Part shown: positions 1,451 to 21,251 of the stretch, in pieces
How positions within the stretch are numbered: the stretch's first letter is position 1
How the letters are laid out: every line of letters starts with the position of its first letter
DNA from: Candidatus Saccharimonadota bacterium
Lineage (GTDB): Bacteria > Patescibacteriota > Saccharimonadia > Saccharimonadales > Saccharimonadaceae
Direction: 5' to 3'
Assembly: GCA_012270305.1 (NCBI GenBank)
Contig: JAAXIO010000050.1
Span: 9,078 to 33,077 of the forward strand
Length of the DNA stretch: 24,000 bases
Notes under the pieces: generated by a model
The model's database searches: none
Seen by the model: only the letters and a program-made list of their open reading frames with translations
What the model was told of the DNA's origin: nothing
Made by a program: the position numbers and the translations under genes

Positions 1451-2422
1451 TTAGTTAACTACGTTCTCTACTTTTATGCCAGGTCCCATTGTAGTGGTGA
1501 TAGCGGTAGATTTTACGTACCCACCTTTGAGAGTGCTAGGCTTTTGAGCTTGCAGGCTATCAAAGAATGCTTTGGCATTCTGGTGTAGCTTTTCGGCACC
1601 AAATGAAACCTTACCAATGCTTAGGTGTACAATAGCCTGCTTATCTACGCGGTATTCAACTTTACCAGCCTTAGCCTCTGTAACTGCCTTTGCTACATCG
1701 GTTGCAACCGTGCCACTCTTAGGGTTTGGCATTAAACCACGAGGGCCAAGCAAGCGTGCGTATTTACCAAGCTTAGGCATGTACTGCGGAGTAGCCACAA
1801 GAACATCAAAGTTCAACTCTTCTTTATCGAGCTGCTTAATGAACTCATCGTCACCTACAATATCAGCACCGGCTTTTTTAGCGGCTGCGTGGTCACCTTC
1901 GGGTGCAAACACAGCTACGCGAACAGTTTTACCAGAACCATTAGGTAGCACTACGGTAGAGCGAATGTTCTGGTCGGCTTGACGAGGGTCAACACCGAGG
2001 CGTACGTGGACTTCTACGCTCGCATCAAACTTAACAGGGTTAGTTTTTACAGCAAGATCAAGTGCTTCTGATAGCGGATATACTTTGCCAGCTTCTAGCT
2101 GTTCGGCTACCTTACGGTAGTTTTTACCGCGGCGCTCTAGCTTTGAGCGAACCTTGGGAGCAGGACCCTTTTTTCGCACTTCTTCTGTTCCGTCAAGTGG
2201 TGTAGTGTCGCCTGCTTCTTTGCGAGCTTCTTTTTCGGCCTTGGCTTCGGCTTCATCGATTGCTTTTTGACTTCGCTTGCCAGCTTTCGCTGGAGCAGCT
2301 TCTTTTACTTCGTGCTTCTCAGCTGTCGCAATCGCTTCTTCGATTTCAGCGATTGTATTCTTTTCTGAAACTTCTAGCTTCAGTTCTGCTGCTTTTTCGA
2401 GCAACTCGGCTTTCTTTGCCAT
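1451..2422 (-). CDS. rplA: 50S ribosomal protein L1 with a ~95-aa Lys/Glu/Ala-rich N-terminal extension
   Basis: The C-terminal ~225 aa carry L1 motifs (GKNYRKV.., VEVHVRLGVDPRQADQ, VLPNGSGK, GPRGLMPNPKSGTV). SD AAAGGA lies 9 nt upstream of ATG 2422. Confidence 0.9.
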   Translation of the reverse strand: MAKKAELLEKAAELKLEVSEKNTIAEIEEAIATAEKHEVKEAAPAKAGKRSQKAIDEAEAKAEKEARKEAGDTTPLDGTEEVRKKGPAPKVRSKLERRGKNYRKVAEQLEAGKVYPLSEALDLAVKTNPVKFDASVEVHVRLGVDPRQADQNIRSTVVLPNGSGKTVRVAVFAPEGDHAAAKKAGADIVGDDEFIKQLDKEELNFDVLVATPQYMPKLGKYARLLGPRGLMPNPKSGTVATDVAKAVTEAKAGKVEYRVDKQAIVHLSIGKVSFGAEKLHQNAKAFFDSLQAQKPSTLKGGYVKSTAITTTMGPGIKVENVVN

Positions 2423-2450
2423 AGGTAATAATCCTTTCTGTGGTACAAGC

Positions 2451-2480
2451 GGACGGAGTATATATACTCATTGTCCTCCC
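2451..2480 (-). promoter_or_regulatory. Structured element in the rplA 5' leader (candidate L1 autoregulatory site)
   Basis: Minus-strand RNA reads GGGAGGAC-aau-GAGUAUAUAUACUC-c-GUCC. A perfect 14-nt palindrome (2456-2469) is nested inside a GGAC/GUCC stem. Confidence 0.3.
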
Positions 2481-2501
2481 AGCATTGATAGTTGTGAGAT
2501 T

Positions 2502-2510
2502 ATTATAGCA
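2502..2510 (-). promoter_or_regulatory. Extended -10 box TGcTATAAT for rplA (leader of about 70 nt)
   Basis: Minus strand reads tttaTGcTATAATa. The same 14-mer TTTATGCTATAATA recurs at 13524-13537. Confidence 0.5.
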
Positions 2511-2541
2511 TAAACTCTCTACTGGAGCAATTTGAGACTGG

Positions 2542-3582
2542 CTAGTCTACTGCTTCAGCTCGTGAAGCGGCTATTGAACTTACTACCGATAAGCTTATGA
2601 TAATCAATCCGGCAACACCAGCAATAATTTCAGGAATATCGAAGAATATGCCAGTAAGTAACACCGTGGCTAATACACCGATTGTGTAGTGCGCTCCATG
2701 CTCTAAGTATCTATAGGCATGTAGTACCTTATGCTCTACCATAAAAATGGTCAGGCTTCGTACCCACAAGGCCCCTATCCCAAGTCCAATGGCAATGAGT
2801 ACTACGTCTTTTGTAACGGCAAATGCGCCGATGACGCCGTCAAAACTAAAACTGGCATCGAGTACTTCTAAGTATAGAAATGCCATAAAGCCTGCCATGC
2901 CAGTTTTCAACACCGCATCACCGGCTTTTTGCTCCTGTGACTTAGCGAATAACTCTGCGAGGCCATGTATTAGTACGTATGTGATAATACCAACCAGTCC
3001 TGCAATAAATGTTTCTTGCGGGTCATGATTGGCCGGCAATAGTGTAAGTACAACGAGAATCATTAGGCTTGTAGCTGTATATAGCCACCATCGGCTCATA
3101 TTCTGTAATGGTTTTTCAATAATGTTAATCCAATGAATTTTTCGTTTCGCATCAAAAAAGAAATGCAGACACAACATAAGAAGAAACATTCCACCAAATG
3201 CAGCGATTGATACGTGGGCTTCGTTTAGCTCCGCAGCGTATAAGTTTGGGTTGTTCAGTGCCAGATCGACAACCGCCCCCATCGGTAGCCCTGCGGTGAC
3301 GGCTACTATGACAATCGGGAATACGAGGCGCATACCAACGACAGCAATTAGTATGCCTATAGTAATAAAAATTTTTCGCCAGAACTCGCTTACACCAGAT
3401 AGTACTTTGGCATTAATAATAGCGTTTTCAAAGCTAAACGTGATTTCTACTAAAATAAGCACGGCGGCGACAAAAAGCGCTTCAGGCCCTAAGAAACCGC
3501 CAACACCCGCTAGGCTGAGAATGGTAATGAGTGCGCTAATGAAAAATATACGAACAGGATGTTTTTTTGGTGTTCTAGACAT
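2542..3582 (-). CDS. Polytopic integral membrane protein, DUF475/TerC-like
   Basis: 346 aa and very hydrophobic. It has paired motifs EITFSFENAIINAKVL and LDASFSFDGVIGAFAVT, which I recall as typical of DUF475. Confidence 0.6.
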   Translation of the reverse strand: MSRTPKKHPVRIFFISALITILSLAGVGGFLGPEALFVAAVLILVEITFSFENAIINAKVLSGVSEFWRKIFITIGILIAVVGMRLVFPIVIVAVTAGLPMGAVVDLALNNPNLYAAELNEAHVSIAAFGGMFLLMLCLHFFFDAKRKIHWINIIEKPLQNMSRWWLYTATSLMILVVLTLLPANHDPQETFIAGLVGIITYVLIHGLAELFAKSQEQKAGDAVLKTGMAGFMAFLYLEVLDASFSFDGVIGAFAVTKDVVLIAIGLGIGALWVRSLTIFMVEHKVLHAYRYLEHGAHYTIGVLATVLLTGIFFDIPEIIAGVAGLIIISLSVVSSIAASRAEAVD

Positions 3583-12215: not shown

Positions 12216-12563
12216 TCAACTTTTTTTGATTGCTTGTTTTTTGTATAGGGTTTCGGATACAGTGCGACGGTCACGGCTATCGTGAATTGCATATACATCT
12301 ATTATGGTAAGAAATAAAATAAGGACTGTTATTGTGTAGGCGATCATTTCTTCGGCTGTTTTTGTTAAAAAGCTTTCGTTTTCAACGGTAATAGATACGA
12401 TGTTGTACCAAGTTGGGAAAAACTCAATCTTCTGAATGTGTCCGGCGTGTACGAGTAAATGAAATAACTCGTGTGCTACAAGACTCATCAATACTCCAAA
12501 AATTGTATACCAAATACGTATATCAATCAGATACTGAATAAACCTATGAGCATGCGCAACCAT
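12216..12563 (-). CDS. Small membrane protein with an HExxH motif (possible zincin-like, DUF3267-like)
   Basis: 115 aa with two or three hydrophobic segments and HELFHLLVH at the end of the first. Confidence 0.5.
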   Translation of the reverse strand: MVAHAHRFIQYLIDIRIWYTIFGVLMSLVAHELFHLLVHAGHIQKIEFFPTWYNIVSITVENESFLTKTAEEMIAYTITVLILFLTIIDVYAIHDSRDRRTVSETLYKKQAIKKS

Positions 12564-12569
12564 GAATGG

Positions 12570-12578
12570 ATAGTAACA
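12570..12578 (-). promoter_or_regulatory. Extended -10 box TGtTACTAT, 6 nt upstream of ATG 12563 (leaderless-type)
   Basis: Minus strand reads ttttTGtTACTATccattcATG. It overlaps the U-run of the upstream terminator. Confidence 0.35.
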
Positions 12579-12603
12579 AAAAAAGACTCACTGGGTAAGT
12601 CTT
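12576..12603 (-). terminator. Weak rho-independent terminator closing the ribozyme-containing transcript
   Basis: Minus strand reads AAGACU-uacccagug-AGUCUU-UUUUU, a 6-bp stem, 9-nt loop and U-run. Confidence 0.45.
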
Positions 12604-12665
12604 AATATCTCGATATGGCGGGGGCTCAAGGATGATTACCGAACCTGGTGTGGTGTAATATAGTT

Positions 12666-12720
12666 TTCGCTTTTCGTCCTTTCGGACTCATCAGCATGAA
12701 TACACATTCATGTAAGCGAA
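12666..12720 (-). ncRNA. Type III hammerhead self-cleaving ribozyme (complete core and three helices)
   Basis: Minus strand reads UUCGCUU-A|CAUGAAU-GUGU-AUUCAUG-CUGAUGA-GUCC-GAAA-GGAC-GAA-AAGCGAA. Stem III is 7 bp and open; the cleavage triplet UUA obeys NUH. Stem I is a 7-bp hairpin and stem II is 4 bp (G10.1-C11.1) with a GAAA loop. All invariant core nucleotides (C3-A9, G12-A14, A15.1-U16.1) are present. Confidence 0.88.
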
Positions 12721-12722
12721 TA

Positions 12723-12735
12723 TGACAAGCAGACA
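12723..12735. repeat. Left copy of a perfect 13-bp inverted repeat (TGACAAGCAGACA)
   Basis: It is the exact reverse complement of 13465-13477 and ends 2 nt from the hammerhead. Confidence 0.75.
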
Positions 12736-12823
12736 TGGAGTTAAGGAAAACATCACGGGGATCGTGAACCTAGGTTGTAACCCATATCCACTTGCCACAT
12801 TCGCCGTTCTGTACGAGACGACG

Positions 12824-13375
12824 TCAGTCGTCAGCCAGACCCACTTCGTTGGGGCCAGCACTGCGCGGCTGCGGTTCCCTCCGGTGCGGAGACTCACCGA
12901 TGAACGAGCTCTCGCTCTCCATCACGCCGCCCGGCTTGGTTATCTCGTCCTGACACAGCGCCACGATCCAGCGCAGCATGGTGCCAGCGATGGCCTCATC
13001 GAAGACTGCCTGAACACCGCTGAAAGCGACGATCAGTCCGTTCTCGATGACGGAGCCACCCCACTTGGTCATGCCGGGCCGGTAGAGGTGCGGAGCGTCC
13101 TGCTGAACCTTGCGGCTTGACAGTCCGGTCTCCCAGCTCACCTTCGCCTTCTCGACGGCGATGCGCTCATACTTCTCCTTGTCGGGGTGGTTCGGGTCGG
13201 CATCGGCGATGAAGATCATGTCGAACTCGCTACCCGGGTAGGTGTGCGGGAAGGCTACGACGATGGTGCCAGCGAACTTGTTGGTGACACCGTCCTCGTG
13301 AGCGGCATCAGCAGTGACGGAGACGATGTCCCACGCCTTCTTGCAGATCTTGGTGGTCAATCCGGTATAGGCCAT
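12824..13375 (-). CDS. GC-rich foreign-looking ORF (183 aa) with a possible GlcG/DUF336-like fold; start reassigned to ATG 13375
   Basis: SD AGGAAGAG lies 7 nt upstream of ATG 13375. The segments YERIAVEKAKVSWETGLSS and WGGSVIENGLIVAFSGVQAVFDEAIAG resemble the GlcG pattern (..KA.TA.. / GG.P...G..iGAiGVSG...De.iA). The C-terminal ~35 aa look disordered. Confidence 0.65.
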   Translation of the reverse strand: MAYTGLTTKICKKAWDIVSVTADAAHEDGVTNKFAGTIVVAFPHTYPGSEFDMIFIADADPNHPDKEKYERIAVEKAKVSWETGLSSRKVQQDAPHLYRPGMTKWGGSVIENGLIVAFSGVQAVFDEAIAGTMLRWIVALCQDEITKPGGVMESESSFIGESPHRREPQPRSAGPNEVGLADD

Positions 13376-13404
13376 GAGGCTACTCTTCCTAGTACTCAAC
13401 TGCA

Positions 13405-13457
13405 TAGCAGCGAGATGAAATGTTCCGCTTTGTGCCGAGCACTTAATCTCACTGCTA
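13405..13457 (-). promoter_or_regulatory. Stem-loop in the 5' leader of the GC-rich ORF
   Basis: UAGCAGUGAGAU pairs with AUCUCGCUGCUA over 12 contiguous pairs, one of them U.G. On the opposite strand that position would be an A.C mismatch. The stem encloses 29 nt containing the hairpin GUGC-ucg-GCAC. Confidence 0.4.
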
Positions 13458-13464
13458 ATTAGTT

Positions 13465-13477
13465 TGTCTGCTTGTCA
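13465..13477. repeat. Right copy of the perfect 13-bp inverted repeat (TGTCTGCTTGTCA)
   Basis: It is the exact reverse complement of 12723-12735. On the minus strand it reads uUGACAAGCAGACA, which contains TTGACA. Confidence 0.75.
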
Positions 13478-13524
13478 AAGTGCTTCGGAAACGAAGAATA
13501 CTCCCGCTTCAACGAAACAGGAGT

Positions 13525-13533
13525 ATTATAGCA
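13525..13533 (-). promoter_or_regulatory. Extended -10 box TGcTATAAT, 22 nt downstream of the tRNA-Trp 3' end
   Basis: Minus strand reads tttaTGcTATAATa. This is the same 14-mer as the rplA promoter. Confidence 0.45.
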
Positions 13534-13554
13534 TAAAATATGTAAATTGTCTAC

Positions 13555-13631
13555 TGGCAGGAGTGGAGGGACTCGAACCCCCGACACCCGGTTTTGGAGA
13601 CCGGTGCTCTAGCCACCTGAGCTACACTCCT
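13555..13631 (-). tRNA. tRNA-Trp (anticodon CCA), CCA-3' encoded
   Basis: Reverse complement: AGGAGTG-TA-GCTC-AGGTGGCTA-GAGC-A-CCGGT-CTCCAAA-ACCGG-GTGTC-GGGGG-TTCGAGT-CCCTC-CACTCCT-G-CCA. This folds as a cloverleaf with a TTCGAGT T-loop. Confidence 0.95.
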
Positions 13632-13668
13632 ATACTCGATTGATTGTACTAAATTACAGATGAAAAGG

Positions 13669-14622
13669 CTACTTATTTTGTTGAATACGAACAGCACGGC
13701 GGAATTTACGCTCTGTATCTGGGTCGGCGTAGCGAACAATTGGCTCTGCCGCAAGTAACCGATCTTTTTTGAGTAATTTCGCATTATCTTTCTCTAGGGT
13801 ACTCACAAAGTAGCGCTCAATTAGCCATTCCCTACCGGGTACAGTTTTTCCTTGCACGGTCATCATCCACAAATCATCCGACCACTGAATGGTATCTACA
13901 ATTCTCAGTTTGCCTGCGAGTGTCATAGGCCCTGTTGGTAATTTAGCAATCGATTGCCGAATGAGCTTTTCACCCAGCTCTTTATTATTTACGAGCACAT
14001 CGACAGCCATTGTTCGTACGCCATTTGGTGTTACCTGAACGGCATCGATTTTTTGATTATGTATCCAAATTATTTCACCACTCAGTGAGCGAAGTTTCGT
14101 GGAGCGAAGTGTCAATCGCTCCACCACCCCAGTAACATCAAGAAATGGCTCCACCTTAATATAATCACCTACCGTAAACCAGCGCTCAGCAATGATAGTT
14201 GCGCCCGCAGTGATGTCTCGAAGTAGTGGCCCCACGGTTTGTCCGGCAATTACAATAAATATTGCACTGGCACCAATCGCTGCCGCCCCACTACTTCTAA
14301 TTGCAGCGCTACCCTCGGGGCTCAAGATACGCCATGCTGCATATGCTACAACCGCTACTATCACTACGCGTACCGCAGCTACAATCACCCCTAGGTATGT
14401 TTCAACCTGTCTCAGTCGAACTGCTTTTATTGCGTCCGACTCATTATCTGAACGCACCGCTACCTTTTGAGCTATAAAGATAATAAATCGAGCTACATAC
14501 TTACTTAGCCAGTAGCTCACAGCAATGGCCCCGATAAGAATAAGTAATGATCGGTATGGGTTGGCCTGCGTAAAAATATCGCTCAGCTCACGGCTGAGCA
14601 TAGGAAGAAAGTCATTTGTCAT
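13669..14622 (-). CDS. Small-conductance mechanosensitive channel (MscS family)
   Basis: It has three N-terminal TMs, then GQTVGPLLRDITAGATIIAERWFTVGDYIKV..GVVERLTLRSTKLRS..G..IWIHN, the MscS pore/beta-domain signature. Confidence 0.85.
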   Translation of the reverse strand: MTNDFLPMLSRELSDIFTQANPYRSLLILIGAIAVSYWLSKYVARFIIFIAQKVAVRSDNESDAIKAVRLRQVETYLGVIVAAVRVVIVAVVAYAAWRILSPEGSAAIRSSGAAAIGASAIFIVIAGQTVGPLLRDITAGATIIAERWFTVGDYIKVEPFLDVTGVVERLTLRSTKLRSLSGEIIWIHNQKIDAVQVTPNGVRTMAVDVLVNNKELGEKLIRQSIAKLPTGPMTLAGKLRIVDTIQWSDDLWMMTVQGKTVPGREWLIERYFVSTLEKDNAKLLKKDRLLAAEPIVRYADPDTERKFRRAVRIQQNK

Positions 14623-20144: not shown

Positions 20145-20220
20145 TGGAGCCATCGTCGGGGCTTGAACCCGAGACCTCATCCTTACCATGGATGCGCTCT
20201 ACCAGCTGAGCTACGACGGC
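20145..20220 (-). tRNA. tRNA-Thr (anticodon GGT), CCA encoded
   Basis: Reverse complement: GCCGTCG-TA-GCTC-AGCTGGTA-GAGC-G-CATCC-ATGGTAA-GGATG-AGGTC-TCGGG-TTCAAGC-CCCGA-CGATGGC-T-CCA. Confidence 0.93.
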
Positions 20221-21082: not shown

Positions 21083-21167
21083 TGGTACCGGAGGTAGGAC
21101 TCGAACCTACGAACCTAAAAAGGGGGAGATTTACAGTCTCCTGTCATTGCCACTAGACGACTCCGGC
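21083..21167 (-). tRNA. tRNA-Tyr (anticodon GTA), class II long variable arm, CCA encoded
   Basis: The anticodon stem-loop is GGAGA-CTGTAAA-TCTCC and the T-arm is GTAGG-TTCGAGT-CCTAC. The acceptor pairs GCCGGAG with CTCCGGT. Confidence 0.9.
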
Positions 21168-21174
21168 AGGTACT

Positions 21175-21251
21175 TGGAGCCGCTTCACGGATTCGAACCG
21201 TGGACCTACTGTTTACAAAACAGTTGCTCTAACCAGCTGAGCTAAAGCGGC
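21175..21251 (-). tRNA. tRNA-Thr (anticodon TGT), CCA encoded
   Basis: Reverse complement: GCCGCTT-TA-GCTC-AGCTGGTTA-GAGC-A-ACTGT-TTTGTAA-ACAGT-AGGTC-CACGG-TTCGAAT-CCGTG-AAGCGGC-T-CCA. Confidence 0.93.

Follow-up and report, generated by a model that had tools for sequence, protein, structure and literature searches.

A conserved type III hammerhead ribozyme in the 3′ untranslated region of a Saccharibacteria mRNA, with a possible role in 3′-end processing

INTRODUCTION

Hundreds of bacterial hammerhead ribozymes have been described since 2011, and their biological roles are an open question (PMC3088659, PMC6155905). For the clustered hammerheads of phages, a role in processing long transcripts into gene-length mRNAs was proposed by Perreault et al., who noted that their function is unclear (PMC3088659). 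Bacterial mRNAs can also pair their 5′ with their 3′ untranslated region (UTR), over 14 bp in hbs of Bacillus subtilis (PMC5737220), and also in icaR and RNAIII of Staphylococcus aureus (PMC7821165), and these interactions modulate RNase access or translation (PMC5737220, PMC7821165). A review of bacterial 5′ and 3′ UTRs makes no mention of ribozymes (PMC7821165). Here, we analyze a 55-nt segment (12720–12666, minus strand) of a 24-kb stretch of a Candidatus Saccharimonadota genome (GCA_012270305.1, contig JAAXIO010000050.1), which we call the window. Judged by its sequence, this segment is a complete type III hammerhead motif, natural and selectively maintained. It lies in a 3′ UTR, that of a monocistronic, stand-alone mRNA of Saccharibacteria type (candidate phyla radiation, CPR), beside a long-range helix that joins the two UTRs.

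The ribozyme is a new member of the known phage, bacterial and viroid-like type III class and not a new kind. Its context is new: a gene-linked arrangement in which a long-range helix that covaries borders on stem III. Our literature search returned no report linking hammerheads with Saccharibacteria, the two co-mentions with Patescibacteria dealing with unrelated topics as far as titles and abstracts tell, and no description of a hammerhead combined with a 5′/3′-UTR helix was found. We propose that the hammerhead acts in 3′-end processing of this mRNA, a reading to which we assign a probability of about 0.6.

RESULTS

The minus strand of the window carries a complete type III hammerhead

The reverse complement of 12666–12720 reads exactly as given in a first-pass annotation of the window, which had described a complete minus-strand type III hammerhead from the letters alone. 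The full-model alignment to Rfam, the predicted fold, and conservation and covariation in the family agree with that description. Stem III pairs 12720–12714 with 12672–12666, and the predicted cut lies between 12713 and 12712, after H17 (A12713), at the position that had been annotated. Stem I (12712–12706 with 12701–12695), the core strand CUGAUGA (12694–12688), stem II with its GAAA loop (12687–12676) and the core strand GAA (12675–12673) complete the motif. The catalytic nucleotides C3 U4 G5 A6 N7 G8 A9 and G12 A13 A14 are in place, the pairs U16.1/A15.1 and G10.1/C11.1 are present, and H17 is an A and not a G.

In a permissive scan of 12500–12900 (401 nt), RF00008 (Hammerhead_3) aligned end to end (1–54 of 54) on 12666–12720 of the minus strand with 40.3 bits (E = 1.8e-7). 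The minimum free energy (MFE) fold of the isolated 55-mer is a three-way junction (−17.1 kcal/mol, z = −3.96), and none of 200 shuffled sequences folded as well. Stems I and II are closed by loops and stem III is open in both the MFE fold and the RF00008 alignment, which is the type III topology. This is the single hammerhead of the window, and there is no copy on the other strand of the unit. As annotated, it sits in the 3′ UTR of a GC-rich open reading frame (ORF), 103 nt from the stop end at 12824, and upstream of a terminator, 62 nt from the terminator-like hairpin 12603–12583.

The ribozyme is conserved behind one gene family

Loci fetched for comparison bear L-numbers (L001 and so on; L093–L172 are viral). 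Behind the same gene, this ribozyme recurs in more than 20 independent loci from genomes or metagenomes, 29–314 nt past the stop codon of homologs with 45–94% protein identity. A strict hammerhead descriptor, run on both strands of about 420 kb of related loci, matched at homologous positions only, the sole extra ribozyme position in these loci being a second module in L048. A covariance model built from 14 family ribozymes found 21 copies at 57–81 bits downstream of the same gene family and further copies in additional loci, so the claim that the motif is no product of chance is well founded. The same model found no ribozyme copy in the loci of actinobacterial homologs.

In the model-based alignment, 97.7% of the cells are paired and 13 of the 17 stem pairs show compensatory changes; the stem covariation in related genomes that the first-pass annotation had named as a check is thus present. 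The covariation score was 0.629, compared with 0.213 for shuffles (0 of 500 as high) and at most 0.085 for slid controls, the signal of stem III coming partly from a one-pair register difference between copies. Across the 14 members the core varies at position 7 only (U, C or A), and no family member has a G at H17, which is A, C or U. Both loop 1 (UGUGUA) and loop 2 (GAAA or AAAA) are kept across the family and match the loops of viroid-like and phage type III ribozymes, while U15, G16, G18 and the loop 2 adenines are nearly invariant in the family alignment. The earlier statement that the stems lack loop–loop contacts was therefore not justified.

Synthetic or vector contamination and chimeric assembly had also been raised as a caveat. 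Our results showed that three assemblies, independent and each from a different sample (L213–L215), agree at 100% identity over the 1,300 bp of window 12401–13700, including both junctions of the module (end of the MscS gene, tRNA-Trp, module, next gene), which excludes this concern. Nor does the resemblance to engineered hammerheads serve as a warning sign, since CUGAUGAGNCC-NAAA-GGNCGAAA is common in natural viral contigs and viroid-like records. Contigs L216 and L217 were considered as evidence for an insertion polymorphism and rejected: they break inside tRNA-Trp and are uninformative. Public gene calls on L213–L215 omit the gene upstream of the ribozyme, presumably because of its GC-rich composition, and place there two antisense ORFs of 91 and 132 aa (window 13187–13462 and 12722–13120, plus strand).

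Phage and viroid-like copies share the ribozyme but not its setting

In viral contigs, at least 120 stretches contain the string CUGANGAGNCC-NAAA-GGNCGAAA. The family model, built from Saccharibacteria, matches 128 sites in 80 viral loci (E ≤ 0.01), many of them full-length at 50–70 bits and often several per contig. In many IMG/VR contigs (L093–L172, e.g., L122, L111, L158 and L097) the same type III hammerhead of 53 nt is present 3–5 times, in every case after a GC-rich hairpin and before an AT-rich spacer and the start of the next gene. Two tiny records of 366 and 377 nt (L146 and L171) contain GGAUGUGUAUCC...GUCC(G/A)AAAGGAC with the loop 1 of the window and the same type of loop 2, and look like viroid-like satellite RNAs filed among viral contigs. 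Their sizes presumably match those of known plant virusoids.

With phage, bacterial and viroid-like type III ribozymes (PMC3088659, PMC6155905), the window copy shares the core, the topology, a stem I of 6–7 bp with a UGNGUN-type loop and a stem II of 4 bp with an NAAA loop. A stable helix stands immediately 5′ of stem III, as in the phage copies: stable hairpins that end no more than 2 nt from stem III were found for 74% of the phage copies of the subfamily and for 14% of control windows. Unlike the phage clusters, the window copy occurs once per unit, its setting is chromosomal and not a prophage, and it is tied to one conserved host gene family. The 24-kb window contains no prophage region with several ribozymes flanking genes, and its single chromosomal ribozyme is neither a small circular RNA nor a two-ribozyme, chromosome-independent unit of the viroid, Obelisk or retrozyme kind. 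A further difference is that the helix beside stem III in the window can form not just as a local hairpin but also over about 730 nt with the 5′ UTR.

A covarying helix joins the 5′ and 3′ UTRs beside the ribozyme

Box A (UGACAAGCAGACA; 13465–13477, minus strand) in the 5′ UTR is the perfect 13-nt complement of box B (UGUCUGCUUGUCA; 12723–12735, minus strand) in the 3′ UTR, 729 nt away, and box B ends 2 nt before stem III. An A–B helix of 12–19 bp is found in every ribozyme-bearing locus except L032, and the hammerhead, where present, always lies 1–3 nt downstream of box B. The two boxes have changed together in L047 (TGACATGTAGACA pairs with TGTCTACATGTCA), L002 (ATTGACAAGTATTGAG with CTCAATACTTGTCGAT), L048b (TGATAAGTAGAAAG with CTTTCTACTTATCA) and L092 (TGATAAGCAGAC with GTCTGCTTATCA). 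In an ungapped alignment of 19 loci the 13-bp core is almost always paired, compensatory changes occur in 9 of the 15 pairs tested, and the covariation is 0.282, whereas shuffles give 0.137 (0 of 500 as high) and slid controls at most 0.083. The helix also belongs to the MFE fold of all full-length transcripts of about 800 nt (12 of 12; mean P 0.65–0.99). RNAduplex on whole UTRs was too permissive and gave giant loops; it was replaced by an ungapped helix score, whose values for single loci are not individually significant against shuffles, and the argument is one of positional consistency and covariation.

The helix is kept in L092, L049 and L051, which have no ribozyme. A ribozyme-less helix is also found in L056, L046 and L003 with unrelated sequences, where box B begins within 3 nt of the stop codon and overlaps it in L003. 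Therefore, the UTR pairing is a general feature of the mRNA and the hammerhead an addition in a subset. In three loci without ribozyme (L049, L046 and L056) a terminator follows shortly after box B, which indicates that the ribozyme occupies the place of a 3′-end-forming element.

As in hbs and icaR, a leader–3′ UTR helix (here of 12–19 bp) forms within one monocistronic mRNA, in an organism of Gram-positive type, and the complementary segments are maintained in evolution, as seen from the 13-bp duplex, the covariation over 19 loci and the 12 MFE folds. By analogy, the A–B helix plausibly controls ribonuclease access. It differs from hbs and icaR in having support from cross-species covariation, in lying away from the ribosome-binding site (RBS; box A ends about 90 nt before the window ATG) and in being combined with a self-cleaving ribozyme motif that would create the 3′ end.

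A local hairpin competes with stem III

Complementarity, folding and a G·U bias define a local hairpin in the 3′ UTR (12715–12805, minus strand) that is mutually exclusive with stem III and also competes with the A–B helix. Its 5′ arm (12805–12778) is composed of GGCGAA, an anti-stem III segment, and of A′, a look-alike of box A; its 3′ arm (12743–12715) is composed of box B and the 5′ strand of stem III, and a small apical hairpin occupies 12767–12753. Read on the sense strand, each departure of the window hairpin from perfect pairing is a G·U pair (5 in all, with no A·C mismatch), and the local hairpins of 8 loci together have 39 G·U pairs versus 4 A·C mismatches. This shows selection at the RNA level on the sense strand and argues against a purely DNA-level repeat. 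When the full-length window transcript is folded up to just past the ribozyme, the A–B helix and the active ribozyme fold form together, with a P(stem III) of 0.63.

The gene and its genomic setting

The coding sequence (CDS; 12824–13375, minus strand) encodes 183 aa with a DUF336/GlcG/HbpS/EfgA-like fold, as supported by the ORF, its homologs and the predicted structure. Its start is likely ATG 13375, which opens a conserved MxxGL N-terminus, and not the upstream ATG 13405 inside the conserved leader. Pfam, NCBIfam and PDB sequence profiles gave no match on the ORF, and the fold was assigned through AlphaFold and Foldseek only: the model has a predicted local distance difference test (pLDDT) of 86 and matches ORFY (2a2l), EfgA (6bws), HbpS (3fpv) and PduO-C (5cx7) with E from 5e-5 to 2e-3. 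The ORF has 89 homolog clusters, the closest named ones from metagenome-assembled genomes (MAGs) of Candidatus Saccharibacteria/Saccharimonadales; distant homologs (about 35–40% identity) occur in Demequina and other Actinomycetota.

The first-pass annotation had called the ORF foreign, which is too simple. The gene is indeed GC-rich, with a third-position GC content (GC3) of 0.81 versus 0.34–0.48 in neighbor genes and a genome GC of 44%. It is not a recent insert, as GC3 is 0.55–0.87 in every Saccharibacteria homolog examined (L001, L003, L005, L041, L047, L086, L089 and L092), members being 45–94% identical. A one-off recent transfer from high-GC Actinomycetota would not explain this persistence; selection at synonymous sites or repeated transfer are possible.

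Otherwise the window looks like ordinary chromosome of about 44% GC, with genes for a histidine kinase, YgjP, a P-loop kinase, MscS, GT4 and GH57 and a tRNA cluster, and some synteny with one Saccharimonadales MAG. Megablast of 6 kb against a phage collection returned a tRNA match only. The tRNA cluster (Thr-Tyr-Thr ... Trp) lies upstream of the module (13555–13631, 20145–20220 and 21083–21251, minus strand); in L032 (1522–2288), a Saccharimonadales locus, the homolog comes after tRNAs in this same order, and contexts in other lineages are unrelated. The gene forms a stand-alone unit whose neighbors differ in each of four lineages listed (L085, L086, L089 and L092). What travels with it is a promoter; a leader, about 140 nt long, that comprises a 5′ hairpin region, box A and the long hairpin P2; a conserved pre-RBS motif; and the structured 3′ UTR.

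The promoter-like site (13525–13553, minus strand) reads TAGACA, 17 nt, TG-n-TATAAT, and a 'tatgcTATAAT' element is conserved at the module start in relatives. The 5′-UTR hairpin P2 (13406–13456, minus strand; arms 13456–13446 and 13416–13406) shows compensatory changes in 12 of 20 pairs. It is followed by a conserved single-stranded motif, CAGUUGAGUACUAGGAAG (13385–13402, minus strand), which includes the Shine-Dalgarno-like AGGAAG (13390–13385). In the form CAGUUGAGUAC(C/U)AG(A/G)AA, the leader motif is highly conserved between P2 and the start codon and could be a protein- or ligand-binding site; a related GUUGAG occurs in the first hairpin region (13518–13481). An Rfam scan of the 5′ UTR gave chance-level matches only. 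At the other end, the intrinsic-terminator-like hairpin and U tract span 12576–12603 (minus strand), and the sequence between ribozyme and terminator is not conserved. A 17-nt inverted repeat (76% complementary) connects the 5′ part of the ribozyme (12705–12721) with 12552–12568, where it overlaps the start region of a downstream 115-aa ORF (ATG at 12563); this is probably chance.

Several relatives differ in how the parts are assembled. L085 (5700–6700) and the window (12560–13560) encode proteins that are 94% identical, with differences in P2, in the 3′-UTR type (no A′ arm) and in ribozyme stem I; UTR parts therefore recombine independently of the coding sequence. L048 has two tandem modules (700–1600 and 2250–3150), both equipped with a promoter of their own and with box A, P2, box B and a hammerhead. 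In the first, the cargo is an unrelated orphan ORF of 144 aa for which no homologs were found, and the second ribozyme has U·U in place of G10.1–C11.1. That the second cargo in L048 is a degraded copy of the same gene was ruled out by tblastn; it is an orphan. The cassette from promoter and box A to box B and ribozyme might be a portable expression module, a modular view suggested by the single case of L048. In L044, imperfect inverted repeats of about 100 nt (2195–2310 and 3156–3271, 85% identity) bracket the module from promoter to ribozyme, and the repeat is also seen in L041 (11–31). The arrangement is reminiscent of a mobile cassette like a miniature inverted-repeat transposable element (MITE); neither the window nor any other fetched locus has the repeat.

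DISCUSSION

The hammerhead motif, its conservation and covariation, the covarying A–B helix and the strand-specific local hairpin are directly supported by our analysis. From these we infer cleavage in vivo and an effect on mRNA stability or expression. In the model that we favor, a transcript would start at its own promoter and run through a structured leader (P1, box A and P2) and the CDS of the DUF336/GlcG/HbpS-fold protein to box B, the ribozyme and the intrinsic terminator. Box B would pair either with box A, closing the mRNA into a loop, or with the local look-alike arm A′, and either helix would end 2 nt from stem III. The ribozyme would then cut after A12713 and remove a non-conserved, terminator-bearing tail of about 137 nt. 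The mature mRNA would end in a 2′,3′-cyclic phosphate about 10 nt past a stable, protective helix. After the cut, the local hairpin of the window could extend over the former stem III strand and leave just two nucleotides of the new 3′ end uncovered; this would render the cut irreversible and protect the end. The released fragment is probably waste, given that the sequence between ribozyme and terminator is not conserved. A helix, a tail of about 8 nt and a cut, yielding a structured upstream RNA end with a 2′,3′-cyclic phosphate, would be a recurring design.

Hammerheads in the 3′ UTRs of mammalian Clec2-type genes were reportedly described by Martick et al. in 2008. As in these genes and in engineered 3′-UTR or insulator ribozymes (RiboJ), a hammerhead in the 3′ UTR would here sever the message from its downstream end, and as in the engineered insulators a hairpin stands beside the cut. 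The Clec2 ribozyme is discontinuous and lowers expression by removal of the poly(A) tail, whereas the Saccharibacteria ribozyme is continuous and bacterial.

Several observations weigh against this proposal. The 40.3 bits of the window ribozyme do not reach the 48.5-bit gathering score of RF00008, and because of this the default Rfam scan of the window returned four tRNAs only and no hammerhead; of the RF00008 check named in the first-pass annotation, the full-model alignment held and the score fell short. Copies of the same architecture are also below the threshold, viroid-like records at 43.8–44.2 bits and phage copies at 45.6–47.1 bits, so the cut-off drops a whole short-loop subgroup and not the window specifically, and the score says little. 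The terminator is just about 62 nt downstream, and the benefit of an end made by the ribozyme is therefore not obvious. In addition, the ribozyme is dispensable, as some lineages have lost or damaged it: it is cleanly deleted in L051 (2927–3030), where the hairpin and the 5′ strand of stem III are retained, the core has a U4C change in L042 (3072–3125), and L048b has a U·U at 10.1–11.1. L059 (3052–3104) has a mismatch in stem II. Finally, nearest-neighbor folding of the isolated 3′ UTR of the window gives stem III a probability of about 0.06 and favors the local hairpin by 2.2 kcal/mol, and the MFE fold of the full window transcript including the terminator tail keeps this hairpin over stem III.

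An alternative is that the ribozyme is a gated switch, held off by the local hairpin until the pairing of box A with box B, about 730 nt apart, frees the stem III strand. Folding models speak for such a switch in part of the family. Isolated 3′ UTRs disfavor stem III by 1.4–7.1 kcal/mol in 8 of 10 loci, while full-length folds of the window, L041, L085 and L002 form the A–B helix and the ribozyme (P(stem III) 0.63–0.91, versus at most 0.08 in isolation). The oligonucleotide of a locus's own box A lifts P(stem III) from at most 0.17 to 0.61–0.97 in 7 of 15 loci, an effect that scrambled oligonucleotides mostly do not have, and an anti-stem III segment recurs in two 3′-UTR types (GGCGAA.. and GCGAAC). 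However, the box A oligonucleotide has no effect in the window itself (0.056 vs 0.044), where the MFE fold with the terminator tail stays in the local hairpin; L086, L059 and L047 are predicted to be active without box A, and L086 is reversed in the full-length fold. The A–B helix of loci without ribozyme (L092, L049, L056, L046 and L003) points to a role independent of cleavage, and the energy models omit tertiary loop–loop contacts and co-transcriptional folding. We regard gating as a tentative alternative, less likely than constitutive 3′-end processing. If it were true, 3′-end maturation would report the state of the 5′ leader, for example whether it is intact, unoccupied or correctly folded, and a bacterial mRNA would here contain a natural self-cleaving ribozyme whose gating is conformational and acts over a long range.

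A less probable explanation is that the hammerhead is a passenger or relic of a phage-type cassette, persisting without a function for the host. The abundance of the subfamily in viral contigs would fit this view, as would the deleted or defective Saccharibacteria copies and the independent recombination of UTR modules seen between L085 and the window. A passenger would not be expected to keep an invariant core and three stems by compensatory changes across hosts whose proteins are 45–94% identical, nor a fixed distance of 1–3 nt to box B, nor to be confined to this one position in about 420 kb of fetched loci, apart from the second module of L048. We therefore consider this scenario improbable.

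It is very unlikely that boxes A and B are the inverted repeats of an invertible DNA segment, as in phase variation, and covary by recombination. Perfect inverted repeats of 13–16 bp do enclose the leader, the CDS and the larger part of the 3′ UTR, leaving the promoter outside, and covariation alone cannot separate DNA repeats from RNA pairing. But the orientation is identical in every examined locus that carries A and B, there is no recombinase that is consistently close by, and no two contexts are alike. The non-Watson–Crick cells lean to sense-strand G·U in the A–B helix (6 vs 2) as they do in the neighboring hairpin, and the position of box B at or over the stop codon in L003, L046 and L056 also disagrees with a segment of this kind.

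An artefact, be it a synthetic, vector or chimeric sequence or a misassembled circular RNA of the viroid, Obelisk or retrozyme kind, deserves hardly any credence as judged by the sequence data: the core and stem II string resembles engineered minimal hammerheads and many homolog-bearing contigs are only about 0.9–1.0 kb long, but three independent assemblies agree through both junctions, many MAGs and metagenomes have the ribozyme, conserved and with covariation, each unit has a single ribozyme and its opposite strand has none, ordinary chromosomal genes form the flanks, and the short contigs, which are not circular, extend into non-transcribed DNA upstream of the promoter. The 1-kb contigs L040 and L041, considered as circular or RNA-derived, were rejected for this reason, and they do not end at the cleavage site.

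Most bacterial hammerheads lie in phage regions of poor conservation, in which it is difficult to infer a function. The tie of this ribozyme to one conserved chromosomal gene, and its fixed position next to a covarying helix, offer a rare handle on what a bacterial hammerhead does. Sister lineages in which the ribozyme is deleted or mutated and the helix retained provide natural "knock-outs", and the whole system, compact at about 950 nt, could be transferred to a reporter to distinguish a protected mRNA 3′ end from a gated switch. The A–B helix is also among the few bacterial 5′/3′-UTR interactions with cross-species covariation, and it comes from a CPR lineage whose RNA biology is largely unexplored.

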